Positions 5,189 through 55,832 are shown, counted from the first letter of the stretch. The stretch is DNA of 64,000 nt from Candidatus Krumholzibacteriota bacterium (GCA_963727455.1 CAVSGG010000005.1:480001-544000); one strand, 5' to 3'. Numbers and translations: made by a program. The notes: generated by a model from the sequence alone, not told the origin.

Positions 5189-5203
5189 GCGGCGCAAGAC
5201 CTC

Positions 5204-19643: not shown

Positions 19644-20711
19644 ACGCAGAGCCAGGAACTTCAGTACGAAGAATTTTGGTGACGCGACTGCGCTATCTGG
19701 GCGACGTGGTATCTGAGCACGCCTCTGCTGGGTAGCTTGCGCGAGCTCCTTTCCGAAGGCCCGGATCGAGTATCTGACCTTCGCGAGCTACGCTCCGGTT
19801 CTCGCGCATCATCCCTGGGTGGATCAGGTGCACGCATTGCCTGACGAACGCGGGAGTTCTTGCAACCCTGCGCATGGCGGCGAAGCTCCGACGAGCGAAG
19901 TTCGATTGGTGGCTGGATCTTTTCGGCAATCCGCGCAGTGCGCTGCTGTGCGCATTGGCTCGGCCGAGGAATTCGGTGGGACCGGCGCGGGGAATTCGCT
20001 CGCGCTTCTTTGACTACCGTCGCACGGCACCCCAACATTCGCCCTCTGCGATCGTGCACCACCTCGACAAGGCGTCGCCGCTCGTGGGTCGCGCCGCGTC
20101 CGCGTCGCGTGCACCTGCGAGGTGACACCGGGAGAGCTGGAGGCGATCCGCCGAACAGTTTCCCGATTTGAATGGGCCACAGCCCTTGTTGTTGCATCCG
20201 GGCGCGACCTGGCCCAGCAAGGCCTGGCCCGACTCGAAGTGGTCGGCCCTGATCGATGCGCTCGACGCGCGAGCAGCTGGGGCCGATCTGGATTTTGAGC
20301 GCACCCGGGCAAGAGGCGATGAGCGAGAGGATCGTGCGCCAGGCGCTCGCGAGCTGCCGCGTCGTGCCTCCTCTTCCCTTGCGGCCATTGCTGGCGCTCA
20401 TTGCCAGCGCGCGCGCCTACCTGGGAAACGATGGCGGCGTGCTGCACTGTGCGGTCGGGCTTTCCACGCCCACAGTGGGAATCTTCGGGCCCACCGAGCG
20501 CGAGATCTGGTTCCCCCACGAAGAATTCGGCGGACTTCTACTGGTACAGGAGGAGGTGCCGTGCCGGCCCTGCCATCTCCACGAATGCGATCATCTCTCG
20601 TGCTTGCGCGAACTGCCGGTCACGAGGGTCGTCGCGGCGCTGCAGGAGCTCTTCAAGAGCGCGAGAGCGGCTTCGGTGTCGCGCCGGGAAGGCCTGGTGG
20701 TCCATGGCTGA
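19640..20711 (+). CDS. GT9 heptosyltransferase-like protein, several frameshifts
   Basis: ILVTRLRYLGDVV; HPGATWPSKAWP; GNDGGVLHCAVGL.TPTVGIFGPT; CRPC...C....CL. Confidence 0.75.
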
Positions 20712-21739
20712 GCCTCGCCGTGTCCTGATCCTGAGGCGACGAGCGGTGGGAGACATCGTGGTGTCTCTGCCCATGGTCCATGCTCTGCGCCAGCTCTGGC
20801 CGGGCGCGAAGCTCTCGCTGGTGGTGGATCGCATGGCGGCGGAGCTCGTCGAACACTGCCGGGGCGGCGGACGAGGTACTCGTTTACGATCCTCCCGAGA
20901 GCGGCGCGGCGCGCGTCCTCTACGATTTGAAGTGGCTTGGAAAACTGCGCTGCCGCACAGTACGAAGTCACCATCGACCTTCTGGGCACTCCGCAGAGTG
21001 CGCAGTGGACCGAGACTCATTGGATCTCCTCTGCGAGTCGGAAGGAAGAGGCGCTTTCCGCAGCTGGGCCTACAATTACCTGCTCGAGACGGCGCGAAGG
21101 AGCGACTCGCTTCGCCGGTGAGGAAATGTTGGATTTCGCGCGCGCGCTGGGCGCGAGGACTTCGAATTGGCGGCCGGCTCGCTTGCTGCAGGAAGGCGAT
21201 TCCGGTCCGAGCGACCCGCCGCCTCCGGGAAGCGGAGCTTGGGTGATTCTGCATGCGCCCGCGAATTGGAGCGCGAAAGCCTGGCCCCAACGGCATTGGG
21301 TCGAGCTGGTCCGGCGCCTCGCGGCGGTGGGAATGGAGAGGATCGAGATCTCCTGGGGCCCCGGGGAGGAGGGCTTGGCGGGACGGGATTCTGCGAGAGA
21401 GTGGGGAATTGGCGATGGCGATGCCGCCCACTACACTGCTGGAACTCACGCGCCGCATCTCCCGCTGTGATCTGCTCGTGGCGGTGGATAGCGGACCGGC
21501 GCATATCGCCATGGCGGAAGGGACACCGACTCTGACTCTCTTCGGCAGTACCAATGAACGAGGATGGCACCATTCCTACTCCGATCCATCGTGCGCTGAT
21601 GCACGAGGTGGAGTGCCGGCCGTGCGACCTGACCGTGTGTCCCGTGCCGGGACACCCGTGTCTGGAGCTCCTCGAGCCCGAGCGCGTGTGCACGCAAGCG
21701 CTCGAACTGTTGGCGCTAGTAGCGGAGGGGGAGGCGTGA
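20704..21739 (+). CDS. GT9 heptosyltransferase-like protein, several frameshifts
   Basis: LILRRRAVGDIVVSLP; HAPANWSAKAWP; VDSGPAHIAMAEGTPTLTLFGST; CRPCDLTVCP...HPCL. Confidence 0.75.
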
Positions 21740-22581
21740 GTTCCATCGGAGCGATCGTGATCACTTTAAACGAGGAGCGGAACATTCAGCAGTGCCTGAA
21801 GAGCCTCGAGTTTTGTGCGCAGCGTGTGGTCGTGGATTCGTTCAGCGAGGATGACACGGTGCAGCAAGCCTTGCCCCATGCCGACAAGATCTACCGGCGC
21901 CATTTCTCGAGCTGGGGCGAGCAAAAAAATTGGGCTCTGCTGCAACTCGATACCGAATGGGCCCTCATCGTGGATGCGGACGAGCGCGTGGGGCTCTCGC
22001 TCGCGCGGGAGATTCAAGAGGCCACCGAATCGGGCCAGAGTGACGCTTTTTGGATTCGCCGCAGGAATTTTTTCTTCGGACGTCCCATCCGCGGGGCGGG
22101 ATGGGGGCGAGATAGAGTGATGCGGCTCTTGCGCTTGGATGCAGGAACTTACGACCACAGGCAGGTACATGAGGAAATCCAACTCCATCCGGGCAAGCGC
22201 TGTGGGGAACTCGAGCACCGGCTCGATCATTTCTCTTATGAGGACTGGTCCTCCACGTTCGACAGGATGCTGCTCTACAGCAGCCGCGGAGCGGTGGACG
22301 CCCTGGCCTCGGGAAAGAGCGCTTCCATCGGGCGTCTGGCATTCGCACCTAGTCTGCGATTCTGGAAGCAGTACCTCCTGCAGGGAGGATTCCGGGACGG
22401 GGTGCATGGGCTGATTCTCTGTGGCCTCAGCGCATCGCAACTCTTCTTGAAGTTGGCGAAGATGCGCCTGGGAGAAGTTCCCGTCCCCTCGGAGAGCGGT
22501 GTTGCACGAGAGGTGGAGGTCGTGCTGGGACCGAGCCCCCGCGCGCTTGCCCGCAACGATGGTGGAGCCGAGAAGGAGTAG
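21736..22581 (+). CDS. GT2 glycosyltransferase, WaaE/KdtX-like
   Basis: ITLNEERNI..CL.SL, VVDSFSEDDT, QKNWAL, VDADER, VHE, GFRDG..G. Confidence 0.85.
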   Translation: MSSIGAIVITLNEERNIQQCLKSLEFCAQRVVVDSFSEDDTVQQALPHADKIYRRHFSSWGEQKNWALLQLDTEWALIVDADERVGLSLAREIQEATESGQSDAFWIRRRNFFFGRPIRGAGWGRDRVMRLLRLDAGTYDHRQVHEEIQLHPGKRCGELEHRLDHFSYEDWSSTFDRMLLYSSRGAVDALASGKSASIGRLAFAPSLRFWKQYLLQGGFRDGVHGLILCGLSASQLFLKLAKMRLGEVPVPSESGVAREVEVVLGPSPRALARNDGGAEKE

Positions 22582-22582
22582 C

Positions 22583-23365
22583 GTGAGAACCAAACGCGCA
22601 GCAGCCACGAAACTCGCGATGCTACTCTTCGCGTCCGCCTGTCTGGTGGTCGGACTGGTACGGCTATCCTGGGCCGCTCCCGGATTCGGTCCGGGAGAAG
22701 AGGCCGTGTTCAACATCAGCTACGGAGTGATCAGCGCGGGTGAGGGAACTCTCTCCGTGATGCCCTACCTCGACTACGATGGTTCACACTGCTATCACTT
22801 TCGCACGCGCGCGAGGAGCAACCGGTTCTTCAGCGCCATCTTCAGGGTTCGCGATCAGGCTGATTCCTTCATGGACTCGGACTCCCTCGTTACGCGGTAC
22901 TTCAACAAACATCTACGCGAGGGGAGTTTTCGGCGCGACGTGGAGATCCACTTCGATCAGAAACACAACAAGGCCTACTTCCCCGACGGTCGCGTGAATG
23001 ACATTGTCCCTGATACTCAGGACGTGCTCTCTGCCTTCTTCAAAGTGCGCGCAATGAAGCTCGATGTGGGAATGGAGTTCGACGTGCCAACCCACGGCGA
23101 CAAGGAGATGTACCCTTTGAAGGTCAAGGTCCTGCGGCGCGAGACCCTCGACAACGATGCCCTGGGGAAGATCGACTGCATCGTGGTACAACCCTTCCTG
23201 GCTGACGATGGCCTCTTCAAACACGAGGGAGATCTCTTGTTGTGGATGAGCGACGACGAGCGGCACATTCCCGTAAAGATGCGGGCCAATGTTCCGGTCG
23301 GAGCGATCGAGGCCAACCTGATCAGCTACACCCCGCCGACCGTTTTGTCCTCCAGTGGGAACTGA
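22583..23365 (+). CDS. DUF3108-type exported protein
   Basis: Signal peptide; F.PGE...F.ISYG.I.AG; QDVLSAF; LG.IDC..V.P; W.SDDERHIPVK. Confidence 0.75.
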   Translation: MRTKRAAATKLAMLLFASACLVVGLVRLSWAAPGFGPGEEAVFNISYGVISAGEGTLSVMPYLDYDGSHCYHFRTRARSNRFFSAIFRVRDQADSFMDSDSLVTRYFNKHLREGSFRRDVEIHFDQKHNKAYFPDGRVNDIVPDTQDVLSAFFKVRAMKLDVGMEFDVPTHGDKEMYPLKVKVLRRETLDNDALGKIDCIVVQPFLADDGLFKHEGDLLLWMSDDERHIPVKMRANVPVGAIEANLISYTPPTVLSSSGN

Positions 23366-24650
23366 CGTGCGCGAAAGATTCTGTGACGTGGTGATCTTCG
23401 GGGGCGGGTTCGCGGGCTTGTGGATCCTCGATACGCTCGTGCAAGAGGGCTACGACGCTCTTCTGCTGGAATCGCGGGCTCTGGGTACGGGACAGAGCAT
23501 TCAGGCCCAGGGGATCATCCACGGAGGGGGGAAATACGCCCTGCGTGGGGTGGGGGACTTCGCGGCGGTCGAGGCGATTCGTGAGATGCCCGAGCGCTGG
23601 AGGCGAAGCTTGAGTGGACGCGAGCAGCCCGATCTCTCGCGTGCGTTGCTACTTTCCGATGTCTGCCACCTCTTCGTGCCGCGGGCAGGGCTCCTTTCCC
23701 ACCTGAGCGCACACGCCTTCCTGCCCGTAGTGCGCAAGGCGGGTCTCCTACATACCGGACCGGTGAAGCTGGAGTCCAAGGATTGGCCAAGAGCCTTACG
23801 CGGCTCGGCTCGGGCAGTGTACTCGATGGCGGAACCGGTGCTCGCGACGGGATCCGCACTGACCGCCCTCGCCGCCCGGCATCCGCAAAGGCTCCTGCGT
23901 TATGCGCCAGGAGCGTCTCTGGAGAATCTGAAGCTCGATCTGAAGAGAATCGAAGAATATATTGTAGAAATTGAAGATCCGGATGCCCCAGAGCCCCTGC
24001 GCCTGCGTCCCCGCTCCGTGGTCTTCGCGGCCGGGGCAGGCAACGAGGGATTGGTGCAGCGCGCGGAGCGAGGCGAAGCCCCCATGCAAAGGCGGCCGCT
24101 GCGCATGAGCATACTCCGGGGTTCGCTGCCTCCGCTCTACGGGCACATGGTTCGCGGCGGAAAGACGGCGATGACGGTGACCACCCATCCCCTGCAGGCC
24201 GACAGCATGGCTGACAACGCGGGGCAGTGCATCTGGCAGGTGGGAGGCGAGCTTGCCGAGCGTGCCGCTGAGGATGGGGACGGAGCTAGGTTGGAGCGCG
24301 AGTTGCCGCGGCAACTGCGGCGATTCTTTCCCGGAGTGGATTTTTCCCGCGTGCTGATGGCCAGCTATGGGGCGGTGCGTGCGGAAGCCCGCTCGCGAGG
24401 CGAGCGACGTCCCAGCGGGGTGCAGGTCAAAGAGCTGGGCGCGGGGGTGCTGGTCGCCTGGCCGACCAAGATGGCGCTGAGTCCGATTCTCGCGTGGGAG
24501 GTGCAGAGGGAGTTGAGCCGAATGCTTGGCCCACAGGAGCGCAGGGCGGGATTCCCCGCGCCCTCGGCTCCCGCGCTTGGCTGGCCGAGTCCGTCCGTGG
24601 CAAAGTACCCCTGGCAAGAGGAGGGCCTCAGTTGGTGCCCCGTGCGCTAG
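23355..24650 (+). CDS. FAD-dependent oxidoreductase (PA4991-like)
   Basis: GGGFAGLW Rossmann motif; LGTGQSIQAQGIIHGGGKYAL; AAGAGNE; MQRRPL.M; WPTKMALSP. Confidence 0.75.
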   Translation: MGTDVRERFCDVVIFGGGFAGLWILDTLVQEGYDALLLESRALGTGQSIQAQGIIHGGGKYALRGVGDFAAVEAIREMPERWRRSLSGREQPDLSRALLLSDVCHLFVPRAGLLSHLSAHAFLPVVRKAGLLHTGPVKLESKDWPRALRGSARAVYSMAEPVLATGSALTALAARHPQRLLRYAPGASLENLKLDLKRIEEYIVEIEDPDAPEPLRLRPRSVVFAAGAGNEGLVQRAERGEAPMQRRPLRMSILRGSLPPLYGHMVRGGKTAMTVTTHPLQADSMADNAGQCIWQVGGELAERAAEDGDGARLERELPRQLRRFFPGVDFSRVLMASYGAVRAEARSRGERRPSGVQVKELGAGVLVAWPTKMALSPILAWEVQRELSRMLGPQERRAGFPAPSAPALGWPSPSVAKYPWQEEGLSWCPVR

Positions 24651-25423
24651 GCAGGAGCGGACTTCAGGTTTCCAGGGTCGGTTTGGGTACGGTCAAACTG
24701 GGACGCACCAGTGGGGTCAAATATCCCGTGGCATTCGAGCTGCCAAGCGATGCTGAGTTGGATGAGTTTCTGGACGCAGCTTGGGAGATGGGGGTCCGCC
24801 TTTATGACACGGCGCCGGCCTACGGAAGCAGCGAGGAACGGCTGGCCCCCTTCGTGGCGCGGCATCGCCACGAGATGATCCTCTGCACCAAGTGCGGGGA
24901 GGAATTCAGCGAGGAGGGTTCACGCTACGACTTTTCGGCGAAGTCCTTGCGAGCGTCGCTGGAACGAAGTCTGCGCCGGCTCGGTAGCGAGTGCATCGAC
25001 CTCCTCCTTCTGCATTCCAACGGTGAGGACCTCGAGATTCTGAAGGAAACGGACGCGGTCGAAACTCTGCAGAACCTGAAGTCGGAAGGGAAAGCACGGG
25101 CCATCGGCATCTCCGCCAAAACCGAGGAAGGGGTTCGCGCCGCAGCGGAAACCTTGGACGTCGTCATGGCTCCCTACAGCTTGCACGCCCCTAAACTGGC
25201 TGAGGCCTTGCAGTACGTGCACTCCCGAGGGGTTGGGGTGCTGGGAATCAAGGGGCTCTCGAGCGGTCATCTCGCGCTGACGGGGGAAGATGCCACAAAG
25301 CAGGCCCTCCGTCATGTCTTGTCGCGGAGCTTTCTCGATGCACTGATCCTCGGTACAATCAACCGAGATCATTTGGCGCAAGCGGTGCACTTAGCCCAGG
25401 AAATGGATGAGTCCGGCGGGTGA
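24632..25423 (+). CDS. Aldo/keto reductase (PA4992-like)
   Basis: LGRSGLQVSRVGLGTVKLGR..GVKYP, DTAPAYGSSEERL, TKCGEEF, SLERSLRRL, HSNG.D. Confidence 0.85.
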   Translation: MVPRALGRSGLQVSRVGLGTVKLGRTSGVKYPVAFELPSDAELDEFLDAAWEMGVRLYDTAPAYGSSEERLAPFVARHRHEMILCTKCGEEFSEEGSRYDFSAKSLRASLERSLRRLGSECIDLLLLHSNGEDLEILKETDAVETLQNLKSEGKARAIGISAKTEEGVRAAAETLDVVMAPYSLHAPKLAEALQYVHSRGVGVLGIKGLSSGHLALTGEDATKQALRHVLSRSFLDALILGTINRDHLAQAVHLAQEMDESGG

Positions 25424-26981
25424 GATGAAGCAGGCTAGCACTTACTTTCCCGATACCTCAAGGCAACGAAGCCTCGGTGAAGAACGGCTTCCCTTGGCCC
25501 TCTTCCTCATTTTCTTGCTCGGACTCCTGTTGCGAGTGTACGGGCTGTCGCATCAGAGCCTTTGGATCGACGAGATCATCACCTTGCGCCAGGGCCTCGT
25601 TCCCGGGCACGGGCTCTGGGAACAGTTCCTGGACGACTATCACAATCCACTGCCGATGGTGGTGATCACCACTCTGGCTCGGATGAGCCACGCCGAACAG
25701 CTGCTGCGTTTTCCCGGAGCCCTCTTGGGTTCTCTCAGCGTGCTTTTGATCTTCTTCTTGGGAAGGAGGCTTTCCAGCGCGCGGGTGGGCCTCTTGGCCG
25801 CGCTGCTCTTGGCGGTGAATCCCTTCCATATCTTTCACTCGCAGGAACTCCGTGGCTACGCATGGATGATCTTCTTCGGATTGGCCACTGCCTTGGTTGC
25901 CGTGAACACCCGGGACCGGCTCAGCTGGCCGCGCGCAATCCTGCTCGCGGTTTTGGGGATTGCCACTGCTCTGTGCAATCTCGAGGGACTTTTCTGGATG
26001 GGGAGCCTGGCGCTTGCCTGTACGGCCGCGGGGAAAGTGCACCGTCACGACCTCAGGGCTTGGGGTGTGGCCTTCGGTCTCATGGTGCTCGTCACTTCAC
26101 CCTGGTGGACCGGGATCTCTCGCACCCATCACGAGGAGAGGCTCTTGCCGGGTCAGGAGACCGGGATACCCATGCGCGGACAAACCACCCTGGGAAAGTG
26201 GGCCATTCCCTACGCGGGTTTCGTGCTCGCCATGGGAAATACCATGGGTCCGACTCCACTGGAGATTCACGCGGAGAGTGAGGAGACGATCGAGGCGAAG
26301 CCGAGACTCGAGCGACGGCACTGGCCCGCCGTCGCGGGTGTGGCGGGAATCGTGTTGGTCCTCGGAGTGAGCGGGATCGTCGCGCTGCGCTCGCGCACTT
26401 GGCTTCTTCTTCTGTGGGTTGCCCTTCCAGTGTTGGTGGCGGTGTGGCTGGCCGCGCGCAACGTGAAGCCCCTGAATCCGCGCTACTGCATCGCGGCCTT
26501 GCCGGCGCTCATGCTTCTCCTTGCGGCTGGGATCGATGCCCTGCCGCGCAAGACCGCCTTCATGGTTCTCATCGCGTGGCTCGCCTTCTCGGCCGTGGCC
26601 GACTATCGCTATCACTTCGTGCCCCAGTATCAGAGAGAGGACGTGCGAGGAGCGGTCCGACTGGTGGAGGAGCGCGAGGGCCCCAAAGATTTCATCCTCG
26701 CTCCCACCGTCTACCGCGTCTTTCAGTGGTATTATCGAGGCAGCAATCCGGTCGAACCCTACTGGTGGTCGAAAGTGGATCATTCGCTCGCCGACGTCAC
26801 ACGCCGCTTGGATCAGTTGGACCCCGCGCGCAAGTACGCCTGGTACGTGCGCTGCCGCCCGTGGCACGACGATCCCAACGGCTGGCTGCTAGCCTCTTTC
26901 GAAGAAAACTGGCGTTCTCGGGCCCTATTTCGCCTGCCCGGTGTCGAGGTCTACCTCTTCGAGCGCAAGGAGACTCCCTGA
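25407..26981 (+). CDS. GT-C fold membrane glycosyltransferase (PMT/ArnT/GT39-like)
   Basis: SLWIDE, HNPL, LRFP, NPFHIFHSQELRGY and PRY; many TM helices. Confidence 0.78.
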   Translation: MSPAGEMKQASTYFPDTSRQRSLGEERLPLALFLIFLLGLLLRVYGLSHQSLWIDEIITLRQGLVPGHGLWEQFLDDYHNPLPMVVITTLARMSHAEQLLRFPGALLGSLSVLLIFFLGRRLSSARVGLLAALLLAVNPFHIFHSQELRGYAWMIFFGLATALVAVNTRDRLSWPRAILLAVLGIATALCNLEGLFWMGSLALACTAAGKVHRHDLRAWGVAFGLMVLVTSPWWTGISRTHHEERLLPGQETGIPMRGQTTLGKWAIPYAGFVLAMGNTMGPTPLEIHAESEETIEAKPRLERRHWPAVAGVAGIVLVLGVSGIVALRSRTWLLLLWVALPVLVAVWLAARNVKPLNPRYCIAALPALMLLLAAGIDALPRKTAFMVLIAWLAFSAVADYRYHFVPQYQREDVRGAVRLVEEREGPKDFILAPTVYRVFQWYYRGSNPVEPYWWSKVDHSLADVTRRLDQLDPARKYAWYVRCRPWHDDPNGWLLASFEENWRSRALFRLPGVEVYLFERKETP

Positions 26982-27625
26982 TGGCGGCCCAGGCCATCGG
27001 CACGGAAGCCGTGAAGTCGCAGCCGTTGTATGAGGCGGCAAAGCGACTCTTCGACATCCTTGCCGCGACTCTGGGCCTCATCTTCTTTCTGCCCCAGATC
27101 CCGTTTCTGGCGCTCTTGGTGAAATTGGAATCTCCGGGTCCCTTTCTGTTCCGGCAAGAGAGGGTGGGGAAAGACGGCAGTCACTTTTTCTGTTACAAGA
27201 TCCGTTCGATGGTGGACAACGCGGAGCTGCTGAAGCAGAGCCTCTCGCATCTGAACGAAGCCGACGGAGCGGCCTTCAAGATCCGTCGTGATCCCCGCAT
27301 CACGCGGGTCGGACAGTTCGTGCGCCGTTCTTCCCTGGACGAGTTTCCGCAGCTTCTGAACGTTTTGCGCGGAGAGATGTCGGTCGTGGGACCCAGGCCA
27401 CAGGTGCCCGAAGAGGTGGCGCAGTACCGCCCTGAACACCGGGAGCGTCTGCTCGTAAAGCCGGGTTTGACCTGTCTCTGGCAGGTCAGTGGCCGCAACG
27501 ACCTGGACTTCGAGGAGTGGATGCGCATGGATCGCGAGTATGTCGCCAAGAGAGGAATGAAAATGGACATGTGGATCATCCTACACACCCTGCCCGCGGT
27601 GATCGCCCGCAAGGGCGCCTACTAA
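26981..27625 (+). CDS. Priming phosphoglycosyl transferase (bacterial sugar transferase, single domain)
   Basis: KRLFDI, F.QERVG, YKIRSM, DPRITRVG, LDEFPQLLNVLRGEMSVVGPRP, PGLTCLWQVSGR. Confidence 0.9.
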   Translation: MAAQAIGTEAVKSQPLYEAAKRLFDILAATLGLIFFLPQIPFLALLVKLESPGPFLFRQERVGKDGSHFFCYKIRSMVDNAELLKQSLSHLNEADGAAFKIRRDPRITRVGQFVRRSSLDEFPQLLNVLRGEMSVVGPRPQVPEEVAQYRPEHRERLLVKPGLTCLWQVSGRNDLDFEEWMRMDREYVAKRGMKMDMWIILHTLPAVIARKGAY

Positions 27626-27673
27626 AGAGCTGCGCGTGCAATCTTCCATCACAACCGTTTCCTCGATCCGCTG

Positions 27674-28591
27674 ATGACTCCCGCCGCCTCCAGCTCGGGC
27701 AGAGTCTCGGTGTGGCTGCGCTTCACGCGGCCGTTCACCCTCTGGCCTCCGGGTCTGGGAATGGTGAGCGGAGGGCTCACCGCCTTGGGCGCCTATCCGC
27801 GCGAGGCCTTCACCTTGACGATTCTGACCAAGCTCGTTCTGGGCGCCCTCATGGCGGCTGTACTCAACGCCGCCAGTAACGGCATCAATCAGATCTATGA
27901 TTTGAAAGTTGACCGGGTGAACAAGCCCGAGAGAGCACTGGTGACCGGAGAGATGAGCGTGCGCGAGGCCAAGTTTCTCTCGGGGGTTCTCTATCTCATC
28001 GCTTTGATCCTGGCGAGTCTGATCAATTTCCAGTGCTTTCTCTTGGCCGCGATCGCGGCAGTTTTGACCTGGGTCTACTCGGCACCGCCCTTGCGCAGCA
28101 AGCGGCACGGATGGTGGGCCAACATCACCATCGCGGTCCCGCGCGGGCTCCTGCTCAAAGTTTGCGGTTGGGCATCGGTAAAGACCTTCATGGCTTTGGA
28201 GCCCTGGTACATCGGTTCGATCTTCTTCCTCTTTCTACTCGGCGCATCCAGCACCAAGGACTTCGCGGACATGGAAGGGGACCGTCTGGGAGGCTGTGAA
28301 ACTTTGCCCCTGCGCTACGGGGTGCGGCGGGCAGCGTGGATGATCGCCCCCTCTTTCGTGCTTCCTTTCATCATGCTTCCTCTGGGCACATCCCTGGGTA
28401 TTTTGACCGGCAACGGCCTGCTGCTCGACCTTCTGGGGCTCACACTGGCGGCCTGGGGATGCTATACCGTGTATCTTCTGGTGAGGCGTCCCGATGAGCT
28501 CGCGACTACCGAGAATCATCCTTCCTGGACCCACATGTATCTGATGATGATGGCGCTGCAAGTTGGCTTCGCCATCTCATACCTCTTTTGA
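27674..28591 (+). CDS. UbiA-superfamily prenyltransferase (homogentisate prenyltransferase/chlorophyll synthase/DGGGPS-like)
   Basis: RFTRPFTL, NGINQIYDLKVDRVNKPER, YSAPPLR.KR, KDFADMEGD...G.ETLP; multiple TM helices. Confidence 0.85.
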   Translation: MTPAASSSGRVSVWLRFTRPFTLWPPGLGMVSGGLTALGAYPREAFTLTILTKLVLGALMAAVLNAASNGINQIYDLKVDRVNKPERALVTGEMSVREAKFLSGVLYLIALILASLINFQCFLLAAIAAVLTWVYSAPPLRSKRHGWWANITIAVPRGLLLKVCGWASVKTFMALEPWYIGSIFFLFLLGASSTKDFADMEGDRLGGCETLPLRYGVRRAAWMIAPSFVLPFIMLPLGTSLGILTGNGLLLDLLGLTLAAWGCYTVYLLVRRPDELATTENHPSWTHMYLMMMALQVGFAISYLF

Positions 28592-28604
28592 GCTGGGAGA
28601 TTTC

Positions 28605-28988
28605 GTGATCGTCGGGATTGGAGTCGACCTCTGCGAAGTGAGCCGTCTACGTGAACTGGAAGAACGCTACGGCGAGCGCTTCTTAGCTAGGGTATTCACG
28701 GACACCGAGCTGAAGCGCTGCTCGGGTCGCCGGCATCACGAATGTCTCGCGGGACGCTTCGCGGCCAAGGAGGCCGCATTGAAGGCGCTGGGAACCGGAC
28801 TCTCGCAGGGGATCGCCTGGCGCGACGTGGAGCTCACGCGCGGGGAATATCAGGCCCCCACCATCGCCTTTCATCGTCGCGCCCGCGAAATCTTCGAAGC
28901 AGTGGGGGCAAGCAGAGTCGTGGTTTCCGTCAGCCACGACGGGGGGATGGCCATGGCCACCGTAATCCTCGAGGGTGAGGAACGATGA
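28605..28988 (+). CDS. acpS: Holo-ACP synthase (4'-phosphopantetheinyl transferase)
   Basis: GIGVDL, RFL.RVFT..E, LAGRFAAKEAALKALGTG, VSVSHD. Confidence 0.92.
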   Translation: MIVGIGVDLCEVSRLRELEERYGERFLARVFTDTELKRCSGRRHHECLAGRFAAKEAALKALGTGLSQGIAWRDVELTRGEYQAPTIAFHRRAREIFEAVGASRVVVSVSHDGGMAMATVILEGEER

Positions 28989-29656
28989 GCCGGGATCTGA
29001 CGGCTATTTTGGCCTCGGGTGCTTGGTTGCTCGTGGTCCTCGCCGGCGCGGAGTTCGCCCGACGCCGGGGAATGGAACGCGTCGATACCCGCCGCCTGGT
29101 GCACGTTGCCGTGGCGAGCTGGATCGTTCCCACCTTTCTGCTCTATGAAAGTTGGCAGTGGGCTGCCGCGCCCGCCCTGGTCTTCGTGTTCGTCAACGCC
29201 TTCAGCCTGCGTTTTCGCCTGATCAAGAGTGTGGAGATCGACGAGCGCAGTTTGGGAACGGTTTTCTTTCCTCTCAGTGTGGGGGTCCTGACCGTCCTCG
29301 GCTGGCAGGATCCCTGGCGGGCCGTGGCGGCGGCAGGTGTTTTGAGCATGGGGTGGGGCGATGCAGCCGCCTCCTTCGTGGGTCGGCGCTGGGGGCGCCA
29401 CACCTACCATGTGGCGTCGCATCAAAGAAGCCTAGAGGGCTCGCTCGCCATGCTCGTGGTCAGTTGGTTGGCGATTGTGGTAGCGGGTGTCCTTGTCGGC
29501 CCGCAGTTCGGCGGCGGTTGGATCTTGGCCGGATTGCTTGCAGCCTTCGTGGCCACGGTCCTCGAGGGAATCTCACTCGTGGGAACGGACAATCTCCTGG
29601 TTCCGTTTTCGACTTCCGCGGTTTTGGCGCTCTTGCACGGGAGTTTTTGGGGATGA
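28985..29656 (+). CDS. CTP-dependent prenol kinase (VTE5/FOLK/SEC59-like)
   Basis: TRRLVH, LGTVFFP, GWGDAAASFVGRRWG, RSLEGSLAM, E......DNLLVP; multi-TM. Confidence 0.8.
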   Translation: MSRDLTAILASGAWLLVVLAGAEFARRRGMERVDTRRLVHVAVASWIVPTFLLYESWQWAAAPALVFVFVNAFSLRFRLIKSVEIDERSLGTVFFPLSVGVLTVLGWQDPWRAVAAAGVLSMGWGDAAASFVGRRWGRHTYHVASHQRSLEGSLAMLVVSWLAIVVAGVLVGPQFGGGWILAGLLAAFVATVLEGISLVGTDNLLVPFSTSAVLALLHGSFWG

Positions 29657-30706
29657 TGGAAACCTCGAACTTTGCTCCCGTCGACCGATTGTTTCTCACC
29701 GGCGGCACGGGCTATTTGGGGAAGCACCTCGTGCGCGAGTTCCTCGAGGCCGGCTACGAGCTCTTGCTTTTGACCCGCGAAAACTCCGATCGCAGCGGGT
29801 TGCCACTGGACGGCATACGGTACGTGGAGGGCGACCTGCTCGATCCTTCGAGCTACCGGCATGTCCTGGGAGAGGTCGGCGCGGTCGTGCATTCGGCGGG
29901 CCTGGTGAGCAGCTGGGAAAAAGACAAGAGTCTCTTCGATCGAGTAAACGTGGGAGCTCTGGACGGGCTCTTGCACGCCTGCGGAGAGGCCCAGGTCGCC
30001 CGGGTGGTGTACACCTCTTCCTTTTTCGTGCTGGGTCCCGGAGAAGACGAAGCGCCACGCAACGAAGCGCAGCGCATGCCCGTGGCTGGATTCAATGATT
30101 ACGATCGCACGAAAATTCTGGCGGAACGCTGTGTGAAGCAGCACCGGCAACGGGGGCTCGACATCGTCAGCTCTACTCCCGACGGTGATCTATGGCCCTG
30201 GCGAGCGCACCCAGGGCAACCACGTGGCGAAGATCCTGGAGGATCTCCTGAACCAGAACTTGCCGGGCGTGATCGGAAGCGGGGAGCAAGTTTGGAACTA
30301 CGTGTTCGTGGGTGACGCGGCGCGCGGGCATCGCTTGGCCCTCGAAAGAGGCGAAGCCTGCGCGGACTATCTGCTGGGGGGGGAGAACGCCAGCATGTTG
30401 CGTTTCCTCGAGCTGGCGGCAAATTTGGGCGAGGTGGCCGTGCCCACGCGACGCATCCCTTTCGCCCTTCTGATGGCCGTGGCGCGTTTACAGATGCTTC
30501 GAGCCAAACTCACCGGCAAAGCTCCGGAACTGACCAGCGGGATGGTGCGCAGCTACCAGTATGATTGGGCCTTCGACGACGCCAAGGCCCAACGTGAGCT
30601 TGGCTACCAGGGCAGGCCTCTGCTCGAAGGGCTGCGCGAGACCATCGACTGGTTGCGCAGCGGAGGAGCTTCGCCCTTTCACGACGAACGGTGGGAGTTC
30701 GAGTGA
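29653..30706 (+). CDS. Extended SDR, farnesol dehydrogenase (FLDH)/HpnA-like, frameshift at about 30175
   Basis: TGGTGYLG, HSAGLV..W, VNV, YTSSFFVLG, YDRTK, VIYGPG..T.GN.V, LPG.IGSG, LLGGENAS, AKAQRELGY. Confidence 0.78.
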
Positions 30707-31449
30707 GCGTGATGCCCGCTTTCAGCTACGGTTTCGACTTGCACAAGCTCGCACTCCCTTTAGCGGGGAATCTCGTTCTCGCGCTGTATGCGTGGCGTCG
30801 CAGGCTCGTCAGCCGCAGTGGTTTCATCGGAGGAGCGCTCCTGGGCAGCTGGATTTTGGTGCTAGGAGGAGGTGGAGCCTATCTGCTTCTCTGCGCCTTC
30901 TTCGCCCTGGGCACCGCCGCGACGCAGCTGGGGTATCGCAGCAAGGCGGAAAGAGGATTGGCTCAGGAAGAGGGCGGCCGCCGCGGGGTTCGTCACGTAC
31001 TCGCAAACTGCGGTGTCGGCCTGCTCCTGGTCTTGCTTTTTCCCAGTCGTTTCTCCTTCGCCCTGGGAGCGGCCTATGTGGCCGCCTTCGCCACCGCGAC
31101 CGCCGACACCCTGGGCAGCGAAATCGGGCAGCTGTGGGGAAGGCGCGCCTTCGATCCACTACGGATGCGTCCAGCCCCCTCGGGTAGCGAGGGAGCCGTC
31201 TCCTTGGAAGGGACCCTGGCGGGTGGGCTGGGAGCGGGAATTCTGGCTCTTCTAGGCTCAATTCTGCATTTTTACCCCTATTCCGTGCTCTGGGTCCCCC
31301 TTCTCGCGGGAGTTCTCGGAAGCGGCCTGGAGAGCCTCTTGGGCAGCTCAGGTGCGGTTCGAGGCCGTCTGGACAACGAAGTGCTGAACTTCCTCAACAC
31401 TGCGGTGGGGGCGCTCTTGGCCTGGACCGCGATCCAGATCTTGCCCTGA
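30703..31449 (+). CDS. DUF92/TMEM19 membrane protein (VTE6-like)
   Basis: G.AQ..GGRRG..HVLAN, ATATADTLGSEIG, G.EGAVSLEGTLAG, ESLLG, NEVLNFLNT. Confidence 0.88.
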   Translation: MSVMPAFSYGFDLHKLALPLAGNLVLALYAWRRRLVSRSGFIGGALLGSWILVLGGGGAYLLLCAFFALGTAATQLGYRSKAERGLAQEEGGRRGVRHVLANCGVGLLLVLLFPSRFSFALGAAYVAAFATATADTLGSEIGQLWGRRAFDPLRMRPAPSGSEGAVSLEGTLAGGLGAGILALLGSILHFYPYSVLWVPLLAGVLGSGLESLLGSSGAVRGRLDNEVLNFLNTAVGALLAWTAIQILP

Positions 31450-31843
31450 GGCCTCCCGGCGGGGCACATGCTTGAGTTTTCCCCAGTCCAGTGATAGACT
31501 TAGAACTCGATCGAGAGGGACTCTCCGGGTACCTATGCGCTAGGTCACATCCGGCTGCAATCCTTCTCGATGGATTGCAACTGTGCTACCGCACCAGAAG
31601 GAGTGCCCGTAGAGCTTGGTTAACGCGGTTCCTCATTGCGAGGAACGTTGACATCCGGGGGGGACGTAGCTAGCTACCGATGGCAGGAGTCCGAAGGGAT
31701 GAACTGCGCGGTCTGGTGGAACCCTTGGTGAGAGCTCGAGGTGCACGATCCGAACGATCGTCTACCCGCTGCCATCTCGCTGAACTTGCCTCGTGGAGGC
31801 GAACCCTCGTGCCATAGTCGGTACGAGGGAGGAGCGTAGTGTC

Positions 31844-32659
31844 ATGTCCCTCGATTTTGTCTCAGCGCGATCTCTACTCGCAACCCTCTTGACAGGTTTG
31901 CTTTTGTTCGGCCTCGCAGCGTGTGGCTCGAGCGCGTATACCGACGTCAATTTGCACAAGGATCTCGATGCGCGGAGCACAGGTCAAAACAGCCCGGCTG
32001 CTCGTATTTTCGCGACCGCCCCGGATACCATGCAGGCGCCCCCGGTCTACCGCATCGGCAGTGGCGATGTTCTGGAGGTCGTCTTCTTTACGCACCCAGC
32101 TCAGAACCGCTTCGTGACGGTACGGCCGGATGGACGAATTACCTTGCCCTACGTGGGAGAGTTGATGGCACGCGGCAAGGAACCCGAGAAGCTCGCAGCG
32201 GAAATCCAGAAGGACTACAGCACGGTGCTGGTGGATCCCAAGGTCGACATTCTGCTCAACAAGATCGGGGGACGGTACTACGTGTTGGGGGAAGTGAGGG
32301 CCCCGGGGGAATTCGACTATGAGAAGCCAGTTACCCTGCTTCAGGCCATTGCAAGAGCGGGCGGCTATACCGATGAAGCAAGGCTTAGCAACTTTGTTCT
32401 CATTCGTGCCGATGAGGAAGGCGGGCGCTTCGCCGCTGTATTCAATTTACGTGAGTACATGGGGGAGCGGAGTAAACGGGGAGATGTCTACGTGCAACCG
32501 GACGACATCGTCTGGGCACCAAAAGACAATATCAGCCGATGGGACAATAGCGCTCGCAAAGCGCTCACCGGTCTGCTTCAAACGCAAGACTTGATCTTCA
32601 AGGGACAGCAAATCGCCAATTTCGATAACGTATACCCTGGTAGATTCTACGGTCCTTGA
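31844..32659 (+). CDS. wza: Polysaccharide export lipoprotein Wza/OPX
   Basis: Lipobox LAAC; YRIGSGDVL, VRPDGRITLPYVGE, YVLGEV..PG, TLLQAIARAGG. Confidence 0.85.
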   Translation: MSLDFVSARSLLATLLTGLLLFGLAACGSSAYTDVNLHKDLDARSTGQNSPAARIFATAPDTMQAPPVYRIGSGDVLEVVFFTHPAQNRFVTVRPDGRITLPYVGELMARGKEPEKLAAEIQKDYSTVLVDPKVDILLNKIGGRYYVLGEVRAPGEFDYEKPVTLLQAIARAGGYTDEARLSNFVLIRADEEGGRFAAVFNLREYMGERSKRGDVYVQPDDIVWAPKDNISRWDNSARKALTGLLQTQDLIFKGQQIANFDNVYPGRFYGP

Positions 32660-32689
32660 GATTGCAACGCCGATTGGGAGAAGTAAGCC

Positions 32690-34135
32690 ATGTCAGGACT
32701 CTATAGCCAAGGTCCGGTGCAGGGAGAACGTGATACCACGATGCGCGACCTTCTGTCGGTCGTATTCAAACGCAAGTGGCTCATCATTATTTTCTTTCTC
32801 GGCACCTCCGCCCTCGTTGCACTGAAAGTAGTGACCACGCCGGAGACCTGGTCAGCCGATGCCACGCTCATGCTGCAACGGCAGGGGCGAACCAGCGTTC
32901 TCGAAAAAAGTGGAAGAGCGTTACCCTGGGTCGAGGTCATGGAGTCCGAGGTCGAAATTGCCCGCAGCGTCCCAGTACTTCAACTCGCTCGGGCCAAGCT
33001 CAAGGAGCCCACCAAAGACTTTCCCGAAGGCATTGACATGGGGATCGGGGCACTAGGATCCCACATCAACCCCGGCGGCGTCGGTGAGTCGAACGTAGTA
33101 TTCATTACAGGTACCGGAGAGCAACCGAAATTAGCCATTCGGATCGCAAACAAAGTGGCCGAGGCTTATGTGGAATATCACAAGAAGATGTTTGCACTGC
33201 CCGACGCTTCAGGTGCGGTCAGAGTGCAGGCGGATTCAACCTTAAGGGCTCTCTCCGATCTGCAGGGAGAACGTCAAGAGGTTCTCAAGGAGGCCGGGGT
33301 CACCGATCTGGCGACCGAGGAAGAAAATTTCCACCTCTTGCTTCGCAAGCTGAGGTCTGATCTCAGCGAGGTCGAACTCGAGATCAACACTCTACAGGCG
33401 CAGGTAGCAGCAATCCCAAAGGACGTGGACGGAATCAACGTGGATCTTCCTTTTGATTTGTCCCGGGGCAAAGCACAACCAGAAGTTATGTTGACTGCCT
33501 TGGACAAGTATCGGAAGAGCCTGCAAAACCTCCAGGAACTCAAGTCGCAGTACACAGAGGCCCACCCTCGAGTGAAGTTGGCTGAAGTTGATCTGCAGGA
33601 GAGTCGCCGGAGCTTGGAGAACTCCATTCGCCAGTTAGCTTCTCTGAAGACCGAGGAACTGAATGTGGCAAAAGCCAAGCGCGATGGAGTTCAGCGTCAG
33701 ATTCATGAAATCGAGGCGAAGCTCGCCAAAATGCCCGAATACACGAGAAAGGTGAGCTTCTTGGACACGCAGATCAGCAGTGCGGAGAAACAGTACGCTC
33801 AGCTGAACGAGAAGTATGTGGATACCCACATCAACCAGGTGGGCTATCAGGACTATGGTGTATCTCTTCTGTCACCGGCAATGTCGGCCTACAAGAACAC
33901 GCGCGGCGACCTGGTGCGTATGGCCCTGGCGCCGCTCTTGAGCCTCTTGGCCGGAATCGGTCTGGCTTTCTATCTGGAAAACCTGGACCACTCCATGAAG
34001 ACAAGGGAGGACGTGGAACATCATCTCGAGATCCCCGTCTTGGCGAGCTTTCCCGATGTGGACGAAGGAGAGTCCGATCTCGAGCCCGAAGTGAGACGAA
34101 CCCCGTTTTGGAAGGGCCGCCGTAGCGGCCGCTGA
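32690..34135 (+). CDS. Polysaccharide co-polymerase (Wzz/GumC/Wzc N-terminal-like)
   Basis: Two TMs flanking a long coiled coil; YT..HP.V; C-terminal ENLDHS.KT.EDVE..L..PVLAS.P. Confidence 0.82.
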   Translation: MSGLYSQGPVQGERDTTMRDLLSVVFKRKWLIIIFFLGTSALVALKVVTTPETWSADATLMLQRQGRTSVLEKSGRALPWVEVMESEVEIARSVPVLQLARAKLKEPTKDFPEGIDMGIGALGSHINPGGVGESNVVFITGTGEQPKLAIRIANKVAEAYVEYHKKMFALPDASGAVRVQADSTLRALSDLQGERQEVLKEAGVTDLATEEENFHLLLRKLRSDLSEVELEINTLQAQVAAIPKDVDGINVDLPFDLSRGKAQPEVMLTALDKYRKSLQNLQELKSQYTEAHPRVKLAEVDLQESRRSLENSIRQLASLKTEELNVAKAKRDGVQRQIHEIEAKLAKMPEYTRKVSFLDTQISSAEKQYAQLNEKYVDTHINQVGYQDYGVSLLSPAMSAYKNTRGDLVRMALAPLLSLLAGIGLAFYLENLDHSMKTREDVEHHLEIPVLASFPDVDEGESDLEPEVRRTPFWKGRRSGR

Positions 34136-34160
34136 AGCTCTGCTTGAGGAGCGGTAGAAG

Positions 34161-35681
34161 ATGTATCGGCACCATTTCGGCCTGAGAGAGAAGCCCTTTC
34201 AGATCGCTCCCAGTCCGAGGTTTCTCTTTCCGTCGGAGACCCACGACGAAAGTCGCGCCAGAATCCTTTATGGCATCGAGGACAACCGCGGCTTCGTGGT
34301 GGTCTACGGCAGAGTGGGTCTGGGGAAGACGACGGTGCTGTTGTCGGTGCTGGAGGAGCTCGATGCCAAGACTCGGACAGCGCTCATCTACCAGCCGGTC
34401 ACCAGCTTCTACAACCTGCTGCGCATGTGCGCGCACGAATTCGGCCTGGGCAGCGAGAATCGGGACGAAGTCAATCTCATTTGGGATCTAAACGAGTTCT
34501 TCATCCAGCGACTGTCCGAGGGCGAGAAGTGTGTGCTCATTATCGACGAGGCGCAGAACCTCAGCCTCGAAATTCTGGAGAAGCTGCGCACGCTCAGCAA
34601 TCTGCAGACGGAAAATGCCTCCCTCTTGCAAATCGTGCTCGTGGGCCAACCCGAACTCTACGACAAGCTTTCGGATCCTCGTCTGCTGCAGTTGCGGCAA
34701 CGGGTGGGGGTATGGCACGAAATCGAGGCTCTCGATCAGGAAGAGACCACGGACTACATCTTGCATCGTCTGCATCGAGCGGGAGCGCGCCGGCCGAAGG
34801 ATATCTTTTCGGTAAAGGTGTGTGAGCGTGTCCACCGCCTTTCGGGCGGCGTCCCGCGCGTGGTCAATCAGGTCTGCGATACCGCCCTGATGATCGCATT
34901 TGGCAAGGAGACTCCCAAAGTCACTGAAGAGGAGGTGGTGGAGGCTGCGCGGGAGCTGCATCTTTTGGAGGAAGAACCGAAGCCAGAGCGGCCGCCAAGC
35001 AAGAGAAAATGCCGATCGACGCCGAGGGGCGCTCCGCTGCTGGACGCGTTTGAGCTTCGCCGCAGTCGTTCTCCTGGTCGTTCTTGGAGCGATCTGGGTG
35101 CTCTTCGGCAGCAATCTGCAGCTCTCACTGCGGGGAAAGGGTATGGCCACCGAAAGCGGGGTCGTTGATGCCGTGGCGGCACCCTCCGGGCCGGACTCGA
35201 GTGTCGATGCCCCGGCTTCGGTTTCTCGCCGCAAAAAGGCACGCAGGAGAGCCTTGCCCCACATAGTGGGCAAGCTGGCGCTGAGGAACCCGCACTGGCC
35301 ATCTCGACGCAGCAAGAGCAGCGCATGAGGGCCCACCTGGAGAATCTGCGAAAGCTTCGTGCCGCCGGCAAGCCGGTCTATACGGTGCACCTCAAGTCCT
35401 TCAAGGAGCTGGCACGTGCCCGAGAATTCGCTACTGATGTCGCGAGGGAACAAAATTGGGGACAGCCGGTATTTATGGAACGAAGTGACGGTGGAACGGT
35501 GTGGTACCGAGTGTTCGCGGGAGAGTTTGCCAAGAGCAGCGATGCTTTGGCTTGGATCGCAGAGCTGAAGAGCAGCGGCAAGCTGAGCTACGCCAATTTG
35601 ATAAGACTGAGCCGGGATGTCGAAGTTCTCGTGCCGGCTGAGGCCGACACCAGGGTGTCTTTGAATGGAGTTGAGGGATGA
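34161..35681 (+). CDS. ExeA-like AAA ATPase with TM helix and C-terminal SPOR-like domain, frameshifts at about 35005 and 35300
   Basis: MY..HFGL.EKPF, G.VGLGKTT, IIDEAQNL, LVGQPEL, SGGVPR.VN..CD; TM in a second frame; WYRVFAGEF (SPOR-like) in a third frame. Confidence 0.72.
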
Positions 35682-44744: not shown

Positions 44745-44848
44745 CGGAGATGGATCGACGTTTGCGCAATGTACAGTTATAAGGACTCTCCAAAGTACGA
44801 CGGGTCGGATCGAGTTAGGTTCATGGCGCAGGGAAAGCAGGGTCGCGC

Positions 44849-46702: not shown

Positions 46703-47863
46703 AGAAATTCCCGTGGCGATCCCCTCATACACTCGCAGGTGACTCTCAACCTCACGGTGGGCGCCATACTGCTCGCGTACGAGAGATGGTGCCGAAACCT
46801 TGACCGAGGTTCGCCAGTCGCTATCCGCCAGGGCAGCCGCGATCCTCCGCGCCAGGGTTATATCATCGTGTGTTGGAAAGGACCTCACTGCGAACCGGAG
46901 CGGGCCCAAGTCCTCGAGGTAGGGGAGTTCGGAACTAATGACGGAGACCCCCACCCCAAGGGCCTCCACCACGACATTCGGGAAGCCCTCCCTGAGGGAG
47001 GCGACGATCAAGAGGTCGAGCAGCTGCAGAACCGGGAATACATCCAAGAGCCGGCCAGTCCAGACGATGTGATTCTCCATACCTATCTCCTGGGCGAGGC
47101 GCCGCAATCTTGGGCCCTCCGCGCCGTCGCCAACCATAATCAGAGTGATCTCCGGGAAATCTTGGATGAGAGAAGGGAGCGCTTTGATCACTGTTGAGTG
47201 GTCTTTCAAGGGAAGCAGCGATCCAATCATCCCAAGGAAGGGGCCAGCACCCAATCCGGGAAATCTCTGACGCAGCTGGGCTAGACTGGTTGCTCGGGCG
47301 GGTTCTGATATTGATTCGGGCACCAAGCCATCATAGCCATTGGGGACGACGAAGATGTTCTCGGGATCAATGTTTTCCCGTGCAGCCAGTTTCCAGCCGA
47401 TCGAGCGACTATTGACCACAACTCTATCCGTACAAGCCCGCGTAACCCACCCCGCCAAGAGCTTCTTCGGAGGCCGCAGCTTCCAATCAAATTCATTGCG
47501 CTCACTCGTTATGATGTTCTCCACGCCCGCAAACTTGGCAGCGAGTGGACCAATGATCAGAGTGTCTGTGAGCAGGGAATGGAAGACATCGTAGCGGTTC
47601 CGGCGGAGGTGAACATAGAGGTCGAGAGGAAAGAATAGGGAGCGAATTTTTGAGGAGCTTCTGAGTTCGATGATCGGACAACCAAGCGAACGAAACTCTT
47701 CGGTGAGAGACCCCATCGCTTTGAAGCAGATAATCTCTACCTGGTGATTTCTCTCGAGCAGTCCTCTGACCAGTCTCAAGGCATGGCGTTCCGTTCCCCC
47801 AATTTCAAACCACCAAAGAAAGATGCCAATTCTGAGCCTGTTGAACTCGCCATGGAAGTCCAT
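46667..47863 (-). CDS. GT4 glycosyltransferase
   Basis: GGTERH, VPNG, GSLLPLKDH, VGDG, SLREGFPNVVVEA. Confidence 0.85.
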   Translation of the reverse strand: MDFHGEFNRLRIGIFLWWFEIGGTERHALRLVRGLLERNHQVEIICFKAMGSLTEEFRSLGCPIIELRSSSKIRSLFFPLDLYVHLRRNRYDVFHSLLTDTLIIGPLAAKFAGVENIITSERNEFDWKLRPPKKLLAGWVTRACTDRVVVNSRSIGWKLAARENIDPENIFVVPNGYDGLVPESISEPARATSLAQLRQRFPGLGAGPFLGMIGSLLPLKDHSTVIKALPSLIQDFPEITLIMVGDGAEGPRLRRLAQEIGMENHIVWTGRLLDVFPVLQLLDLLIVASLREGFPNVVVEALGVGVSVISSELPYLEDLGPLRFAVRSFPTHDDITLARRIAAALADSDWRTSVKVSAPSLVREQYGAHREVESHLRVYEGIATGISLKNLGQRPSEH

Positions 47864-50745: not shown

Positions 50746-50749
50746 TTTC

Positions 50750-54531: not shown

Positions 54532-54533
54532 CG

Positions 54534-55817: not shown

Positions 55818-55832
55818 GAAAATCACGGTGAA

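Follow-up and report, generated by a model that had tools for sequence, protein, structure and literature searches.

Organization of the gene cluster

The subject of this study is a cluster of five co-oriented genes at positions 27674-31449 of a window of 64,000 nucleotides (nt), the whole stretch of DNA that was analysed, from a Candidatus Krumholzibacteriota bacterium (G000:C5:480001-544000). Its genome, G000, comprises 3.46 Mb on 18 contigs and is 88.85% complete with 6.68% contamination. The cluster encodes a prenyltransferase of the UbiA superfamily, the holo-ACP synthase AcpS, a membrane protein resembling VTE5 and dolichol kinases (hereafter the kinase), an extended short-chain dehydrogenase/reductase (SDR) and a protein of the DUF92 family (Table 1). 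Our comparative analysis showed that the UbiA, kinase, SDR and DUF92 genes neighbour each other in two phyla and that kinase and DUF92 are fused in Acidobacteriota, which points to a module that may convert free isoprenoid alcohols (prenols) into prenyl diphosphates for the UbiA enzyme.

The original prediction, made from the DNA alone, had described the five genes as joined by a 13-nt gap and three 4-nt start/stop overlaps, a layout that is borne out by the gene calls and the junctions in the DNA. The UbiA gene ends with TGA at 28589-28591 and AcpS begins with GTG at 28605, 13 nt further on; the overlaps are ATGA at 28985-28988, ATGA at 29653-29656 and GTGA at 30703-30706. The start codon of the DUF92 gene at 30703 is GTG and not ATG, the next in-frame ATG being located at 30712. 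All amino acid strings quoted in the prediction are present in the translations, namely NQIYD...NKP and YSAPPLRSKR in the UbiA protein and YTSSFFVLG, LPGVIGSG, GENAS, TGKAP and AQRELGY in the SDR. Upstream of the cluster, the ATG of a polyprenyl-phosphate glycosyl-phosphotransferase (PGT) gene at 26981 overlaps the stop of a GT-C glycosyltransferase gene, and the PGT gene ends 48 nt 5' of UbiA. Wza and Wzz are encoded downstream.

Table 1. Genes of the cluster and its upstream neighbours, with positions in the window
Feature	Position	Strand	Basis
UbiA-superfamily membrane prenyltransferase, 305 amino acids (aa), DGGGPS/ChlG/HPT branch	27674..28591	+	PF01040; catalytic Asp motifs intact
Holo-ACP synthase AcpS, probably a housekeeping passenger	28605..28988	+	GTG start; TIGR00516
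VTE5/dolichol-kinase-like integral membrane protein, 223 aa, proposed prenol kinase	28985..29656	+	PF01148; homologue names
Extended SDR (HpnA/FLDH-like), split by one extra base at 30171	29653..30706	+	PF01370 in both pieces
DUF92/VTE6-family integral membrane protein, proposed prenyl-phosphate kinase	30703..31449	+	PF01940
GT-C type glycosyltransferase (PMT_2/STT3-like), upstream	25407..26981	+	PF13231 26.1 bits, PF02516 24.5 bits, both at cut-off
Small polyprenyl-phosphate glycosyl-phosphotransferase (PGT, Bac_transf), upstream	26981..27625	+	PF02397 212.7 bits

Conservation and fusion of the module genes

The distribution of the module in the phylum of the window was investigated in 121 sampled genomes. 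A UbiA orthologue (E <= 1e-30) is present in eight of them, all from a single family (f1), and DUF92 exceeds its cut-off in eight as well, seven from f1 plus one match on a 2.9-kb contig (G089). Both genes co-occur in seven genomes, all of that family; in G016, UbiA sits on a contig of 2.7 kb. The order GT-C, PGT, UbiA, AcpS, kinase, DUF92, with the SDR as a facultative element between the last two, is kept in all six f1 loci that were fetched.

Acidobacteriota are the source of independent evidence for the co-conservation. All 16 acidobacterial loci that were found with the DUF92 protein, 11 of them labelled Thermoanaerobaculia, encode a kinase-like domain and DUF92 in one open reading frame (ORF). 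The same loci contain an adjoining UbiA orthologue in 15 cases (47-54% identical to the UbiA of the window) and an SDR in 11, in the order SDR, kinase::DUF92 fusion, UbiA. Because the same genes neighbour each other in a second phylum, their association reflects more than chance, and the co-conservation in other genomes, which had been set beforehand as a test of the prediction, is confirmed in f1 and in Acidobacteriota.

A wider survey found PF01940 over the cut-off in 72 of 151 sampled genomes of Acidobacteriota, a tally that includes one genome flagged as unpublished (G145). Forty DUF92 loci were fetched, taken down the score ranking of the 72 positives and thus not at random. The kinase is adjacent in 27 of them and forms one ORF with DUF92 in 26; UbiA is adjacent in 16, an SDR (counted at >=100 bits) in 18, and all four genes are present in 13. 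One locus without a DUF92 match with the tblastn queries (L075) was counted as a miss. Four of five genomes without an adjacent UbiA gene harbor an orthologue elsewhere (56-74% identical to the acidobacterial UbiA query from L004), and the neighbours of these unlinked genes (L079-L082) are variable and indicate no acceptor. In one of them (L079, genome G126; 5035-5910, 4168-4743) a short-chain polyprenyl synthase lies immediately 5' of UbiA, preceded by the lipid A deacylase PagL and a GT2 glycosyltransferase.

When the fusion was compared with a library of 1.84 billion representatives, both domains were present in 140 of the 150 top-ranking clusters, the kinase again being located N-terminal to DUF92. 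The combination of two kinase-type domains in one polypeptide fits two consecutive steps on one substrate. A shorter, stand-alone type of DUF92 was found in 13 of the 40 fetched loci (among them L051, L054, L055, L057, L059-L061, L064, L066, L067, L071 and L072). These loci lack kinase, UbiA and SDR nearby and have recurrent other neighbours, one example being an MgsA-type AAA ATPase; the shorter proteins likely represent a separate subfamily with another role.

The UbiA prenyltransferase

The placement of the four module proteins within their families rests on model scores. The UbiA protein belongs to the UbiA superfamily (PF01040, 139.2 bits; cut-off 34.2), and its top NCBIfam models are the archaeal-type PRK12884 (126.5 bits), ChlG (chlorophyll synthase, 117.7), HPT (homogentisate phytyltransferase, 99.5) and DGGGPS (digeranylgeranylglyceryl phosphate synthase, 97.7), all far below their cut-offs. 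This holds for both DGGGPS models (NF009521, 97.7 vs 296; NF009522, 85 vs 353), for chlorophyll and bacteriochlorophyll synthase (NF005742, 117.7 vs 313; TIGR02056, 71.6 vs 436; TIGR01476, 99 vs 212) and for HPT (NF009525, 99.5 vs 226). The nearest solved structures are the DGGGPS of M. jannaschii (PDB 6m31, 80 bits), followed by a chlorophyll a synthase (9sau, 66 bits). In the alignment to 6m31, the strings NQIYDLKVD and KDFADMEGD correspond to motifs 1 and 3 of MjDGGGPS, according to the description of the DGGGPS Asp motifs in a section of PMC9385802. The original prediction had regarded the enzyme as similar to homogentisate prenyltransferases, which turned out not to be specific: the HPT score ranks third after PRK12884 and ChlG, and the nearest structure is a DGGGPS. 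By these scores the protein is a distinct branch of the DGGGPS/ChlG/HPT clade. Its type is highly conserved, with more than 100 clusters at >=59% identity, and the proteins are 47-61% identical across the two phyla.

Genome G000 contains four UbiA genes, none of the chlorophyll-synthase type. The other three are MqnP-like, a heme O synthase and a gene of the decaprenyl-phosphate phosphoribosyltransferase type. The latter (L078, G000:C5:168500-172500), which is located on the same contig outside the window, passes NF008977 (262 bits vs 234) and lies directly 3' of a WcaJ-type polyprenyl glycosylphosphotransferase, a pair suggestive of a pathway to a polyprenyl-phospho-pentose donor (arabinan-like) in a genome that is not actinobacterial. 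The heme O synthase domain (L077, G000:C9:319500-323500) occupies residues 376-658 of a 659-aa ORF, whose approximately 370 N-terminal residues gave no NCBIfam match at the threshold used.

Kinase, DUF92 and AcpS

More than 90% of the length of the kinase is covered by its alignments to cyanobacterial proteins of the "diacylglycerol/polyprenol kinase family" (Nostoc, 37% identity, E 7.9e-21; Cyanobium, 32%), and close homologues are annotated by JGI as phytol kinase or dolichol kinase. An alignment of ten sequences, cyanobacterial and fused acidobacterial forms among them, shows no variation at residues R36, H40, G125-D126, E194 and D202-N203. The cyanobacterial homology and the JGI names speak for the predicted relationship to prenol kinases, whereas the Pfam match (PF01148) is borderline; the protein is therefore a putative prenol kinase. 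The DUF92 protein is a clear member of its family (PF01940, 153.5 bits; cut-off 27.5). A complex prediction for the kinase and the DUF92 protein of the window scored 0.00 against a mark of 0.32, which gives no verdict either way.

AcpS is confirmed as a gene and as a family member (TIGR00516, 95.2 bits; cut-off 59.8), in agreement with the original prediction, but it probably takes no part in the pathway. It is the sole AcpS match in G000, G057 and G068, and the acidobacterial clusters are without AcpS; the protein is therefore probably a housekeeping passenger. In a genome without the module (G001), AcpS is found in an unrelated context, and no "empty site" is demonstrable there.

The SDR and its frameshift

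The frameshift in the SDR of the window sequence is real and consists of one extra base in comparison with three intact relatives. In two public wetland runs (X1 and X2), the contigs covering the stretch are identical to it except that one letter is missing at 30171; their depth is low (3.68 and 4.9), and either run may be the source sample. Upon removal of the extra base, positions 29653-30706 form a single ORF of 350 aa, which shares 83% identity over its full length with the intact orthologue of locus L001. Given the base-free contigs and the restored ORF, the break probably represents an assembly error or a minor variant, and the SDR was therefore treated as intact in the population.

The translation contains the GxxGxxG, TSS and YxxxK motifs, and the catalytic residues S, Y and K are present. 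Whether the SDR groups with HpnA, a check proposed in the original prediction, received a divided answer. HpnA (TIGR03466) is the best curated model, followed by the sterol demethylase SdmB and OleD reductase models, yet the score of the intact orthologue (L001:5955-7001) lies below the cut-off (212.4 vs 367.65). A genuine HpnA would also be expected to come with a hopanoid pathway, but no hopene cyclase exceeds its cut-off in the five module-bearing genomes. The nearest PDB entry is 3wj7, a "putative oxidoreductase" (143.6 bits), and among the neighbours in the Atlas are one cluster from Streptophyta and another labelled "dihydroflavonol-4-reductase/farnesol dehydrogenase family" (score 0.99), which we treat as a lead only.

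Genomic neighbourhood and pathway genes

The flanks of the module differ by phylum, with GT-C, PGT and Wza in the family of the window as opposed to LptD and rmlABD in Acidobacteriota. ORF clusters among the acidobacterial neighbours were used only if confirmed by Pfam, which left LptD. A gene for LptD of about 780 aa (PF04453/PF19838) recurs 5' of SDR-kinase::DUF92, with 23 occurrences among 61 inspected loci, including L012, L014, L044-L053 and L070-L073; rmlA, rmlD, rmlB and a sugar epimerase often intervene before the module. Queries with GT-C and PGT gave no match in the 40 acidobacterial loci. Flanks of this envelope type suggest a housekeeping role internal to the cell, in the membrane or envelope, and internal recycling is therefore favoured over environmental scavenging. 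The environmental source of the prenol that had originally been proposed found no support.

In the window itself, the module is embedded in a long co-directional gene run on the plus strand (20401-35168) with several overlapping starts and stops, in the order GT9/GT2, DUF3108, a DAO-type FAD oxidoreductase, an aldo/keto reductase, GT-C, PGT, module, Wza and Wzz; an ORF of 335 aa at 34161-35168 closes the run after Wzz. The segment at 44001-56000 has a GC content of 0.53-0.55 in comparison with about 0.61 in the first 40 kb and may be foreign or differently composed. No RNA run was found among the public runs matching the stretch.

Pathway genes were searched in five module-bearing genomes, namely G000 (88.85% complete), G057, G058 and G068 (93-99%) and G121. 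The statement of the original prediction that photosynthesis and tocopherol genes are missing from the window is not contradicted, and it extends to the genome level in that G000 has no ChlG-type UbiA and that tocopherol cyclase was detected in none of the five genomes, with a model whose sensitivity the controls did not validate. HPPD (TIGR01263) is over the cut-off in two of the five (not in G000, G057 and G058), and no geranylgeranyl reductase exceeds the cut-off in G000.

Proposed function and alternative explanations

The gene order, the families, the co-conservation, the fusion and the intact catalytic motifs are the observed framework on which a function can be proposed. The fusion, the repeated linkage to one type of UbiA and the homology to VTE5 and VTE6 fit a sequence from prenol via prenyl phosphate (prenyl-P) to prenyl diphosphate (prenyl-PP) and prenyl transfer. 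We thus propose, and give it an even chance, that the genes represent a conserved bacterial module in which two membrane kinases turn a free allylic prenol into the diphosphate that serves as donor for a DGGGPS/ChlG-like UbiA. The VTE5-like protein would phosphorylate the prenol to prenyl-P, the DUF92/VTE6-like protein would convert prenyl-P to prenyl-PP, and UbiA would move the prenyl group onto an O or C atom of an acceptor that is probably membrane-bound. The accessory HpnA/FLDH-like SDR would most likely interconvert prenal and prenol at the entry of the pathway. The kinase activities, their order, their connection with UbiA and the role of the SDR are predicted from sequence. The prenol may come from the turnover of the bacterium's own prenylated product, as phytol does in cyanobacteria and plants, more likely than from scavenging outside. 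Accordingly worded, the salvage-to-prenylation idea of the original prediction stands with respect to co-conservation, kinase homology and fusion, while the HPT-like UbiA and the environmental prenol are not supported, AcpS is probably a passenger and the SDR became optional.

Several observations weigh against this proposal. The match of the kinase to PF01148 is borderline (24.2 bits; cut-off 24) and no NCBIfam model was matched, and the DUF92 protein scores below the cut-off of the narrower model TIGR00297 (146.7 vs 205.85). Of the 27 acidobacterial loci with a linked kinase, 11 have no UbiA gene adjacent to it. The SDR is a dispensable part of the module: it is gone from the cluster in the genus g2 (two of the six f1 loci), in nine of the 27 kinase-linked acidobacterial loci and in several Thermoanaerobaculia. 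The carriers in f1 count as roughly one event because the genomes are kin; the module is one inherited block in this phylum, which leaves few independent lineages (one family plus Acidobacteriota). A promoter and terminator scan at the ends of the operon gave no signal over shuffled controls. Furthermore, G000 has three polyprenyl synthases of its own, so that it is not evident why a salvage route would be required. Finally, the envelope and glycan genes that flank the module in both phyla also fit the upkeep of a carrier lipid.

In this latter explanation, which we regard as unlikely, the kinase would re-phosphorylate free polyprenol for the envelope glycans of the neighbouring PGT and GT-C, and DUF92, SDR and UbiA would modify or recycle the carrier. 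It would account for the position of the module between GT-C plus PGT and Wza/Wzz in all six f1 loci and behind LptD, rmlA/rmlD/rmlB and the sugar epimerase in Acidobacteriota, for the PMT_2 GT-C gene near the unlinked UbiA of L081 as well as PagL and GT2 near that of L079, and for the name dolichol kinase that JGI gives to some homologues. However, the glycan neighbours change between the phyla while the four module genes stay together, and the GT-C and PGT queries remained unmatched in the 40 acidobacterial loci. A kinase from prenyl-P to prenyl-PP is without an obvious place in carrier recycling, and the decaprenyl-phosphate phosphoribosyltransferase type is represented by a separate gene (L078) and not by the UbiA of the module. 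Still less probable is a chemistry of the hopanoid type or another sugar or steroid chemistry, with the SDR acting as an HpnA-like epimerase or dehydrogenase on the acceptor instead of on prenal or prenol. The ranking of the curated models (HpnA with 212 bits for the L001 orthologue, then SdmB and OleD) would suit this idea, but the SDR remains under the HpnA cut-off of 367.65, squalene-hopene cyclase is over the cut-off in none of the five genomes, and the Atlas lead points to the plant-like and farnesol dehydrogenase clusters.

Two further alternatives start from the UbiA protein. It could be a true DGGGPS that attaches a second geranylgeranyl chain to geranylgeranylglyceryl phosphate in the synthesis of archaeal-type lipids, the two proteins with a CTP-transferase fold then activating this product in the manner of CarS and not serving as kinases. 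Its nearest solved structure and nearest curated models are of the DGGGPS type, a passage of PMC6431249 describes homologues of DGGGPS, with no known role, throughout the FCB group of bacteria, and the sole Pfam match of the kinase is the cytidylyltransferase family PF01148. We nevertheless consider this very unlikely: the geranylgeranylglyceryl phosphate synthase GGGPS (PF01884) was detected in none of the five genomes, with positive results in four archaeal controls and Bacillus; the CarS-like model PF01864 misses the module in all five; and an Fe-ADH_2 of the glycerol-1-phosphate (G1P) dehydrogenase type is over the cut-off in just two. Moreover, UbiA scores below all DGGGPS cut-offs and the kinase aligns with cyanobacterial proteins of the polyprenol kinase family. 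We attach hardly any probability to the view that UbiA prenylates homogentisate, with salvaged phytol or geranylgeraniol as the source of the prenyl group, and serves the synthesis of tocochromanol- or plastoquinone-like compounds, as in the plant route from VTE5 via VTE6 to VTE2. The motifs N-Q-x2-D-x3-D and YSAPPLRSKR are described in the original prediction as typical of such enzymes, and HPT ranks third among the NCBIfam matches, but its score is far below the cut-off and lower than those of PRK12884 and ChlG, and the scattered HPPD and the negative result for tocopherol cyclase (with its unvalidated model) also speak against it.

Relation to known systems

The two-kinase pathway that we favour has its closest counterpart in the phytol route of plants and cyanobacteria (VTE5 and VTE6, followed by VTE2/HPT, MenA or ChlG), which employs two families akin to the kinase and DUF92, acting in the order proposed here, and a diphosphate consumer from the UbiA family. 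The genes of the plant phytol route are not known to be linked, whereas those of the module are adjacent or fused and occur in non-phototrophic bacteria. In addition, the UbiA of the module falls into none of the curated consumer families, and chlorophyll, tocopherol-cyclase or consistent homogentisate genes were not found in the genomes searched. The farnesol cycle of plants (FLDH and FOLK) likewise includes an extended SDR, which in the module adjoins the VTE5/FOLK-type kinase; the Atlas clusters are a lead to a likeness of the SDR to FLDH, and in contrast to the cycle the SDR is optional and has HpnA, under the cut-off, as its best curated model. With the archaeal DGGGPS (6m31), the nearest structure by sequence, the UbiA protein shares motif 1 (N-x3-D-x3-D) and motif 3 (D-x2-D-x3-D). 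It differs by a Gln instead of Asp after the Asn of motif 1, by a ChlG-like motif 2 (YSAPPL), by its scores under the model cut-offs and by the lack of a GGGPS in the five module-bearing genomes that could supply the acceptor.

The same two-step chemistry from prenol via prenyl-P to prenyl-PP exists outside plants in the geranylgeraniol and geranylgeranyl-phosphate kinase activities of Sulfolobus and in PolK of Plasmodium. No genes are known to encode the archaeal activities, and DUF92 gave no match in a Sulfolobus control genome. The Sulfolobus activities go back to Ohnuma 1996, as cited in a section of PMC9385802, and the prenol kinase PolK is described in the summary part of a preprint (bioRxiv 10.1101/2023.07.17.549440).

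Searches of the literature retrieved no description of the four-gene module; Seaver 2014 and vom Dorp 2015 lay outside these searches. Seaver 2014 (PlantSEED) reportedly based its prediction of VTE6 on prokaryotic genomes in which COG1836 is clustered or fused with phytol kinase; if so, the link between kinase and DUF92 is already in print. The prediction of VTE6 from COG1836 comparisons is also mentioned in a passage of a 2022 review, where genes for two-enzyme prenol salvage are described as known only from plants and cyanobacteria (PMC9782597). For the bacterial DGGGPS homologues, the corresponding passage of PMC6431249 calls the role unclear.

Biological implications

The type of acceptor invites a more specific and quite doubtful idea, according to which the DGGGPS-like UbiA, with its own pair of kinases for geranylgeraniol and geranylgeranyl phosphate, would attach an isoprenoid chain through an ether bond to a glycerolipid of bacterial type, for example lyso-phosphatidate or monoalkyl glycerol phosphate. 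If this were true, many Acidobacteriota and this family of Krumholzibacteriota would make hybrid isoprenoid/acyl or isoprenoid/alkyl lipids without GGGPS. It would represent a bacterial route across the "lipid divide" and a candidate source of hybrid isoprenoid/branched tetraethers. The origin of these compounds is called elusive in a passage of PMC6898228, which also reports that they co-vary with bacterial branched glycerol dialkyl glycerol tetraethers (GDGTs) in wetland sediments. DNA of the window was detected in wetland metagenomes.

VTE5-like and VTE6-like proteins are thus encoded by linked or fused genes in non-phototrophic bacteria and tied repeatedly to one DGGGPS/ChlG-like UbiA. The fusions represent natural candidates for single-polypeptide enzymes that would convert a prenol into its diphosphate, and some of the bacterial "DGGGPS homologues" are thereby assigned a putative partner pathway. 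Under the two-kinase proposal, carriers of the module in two non-photosynthetic phyla are predicted to make an undescribed prenylated compound of the envelope or membrane from free isoprenoid alcohols.

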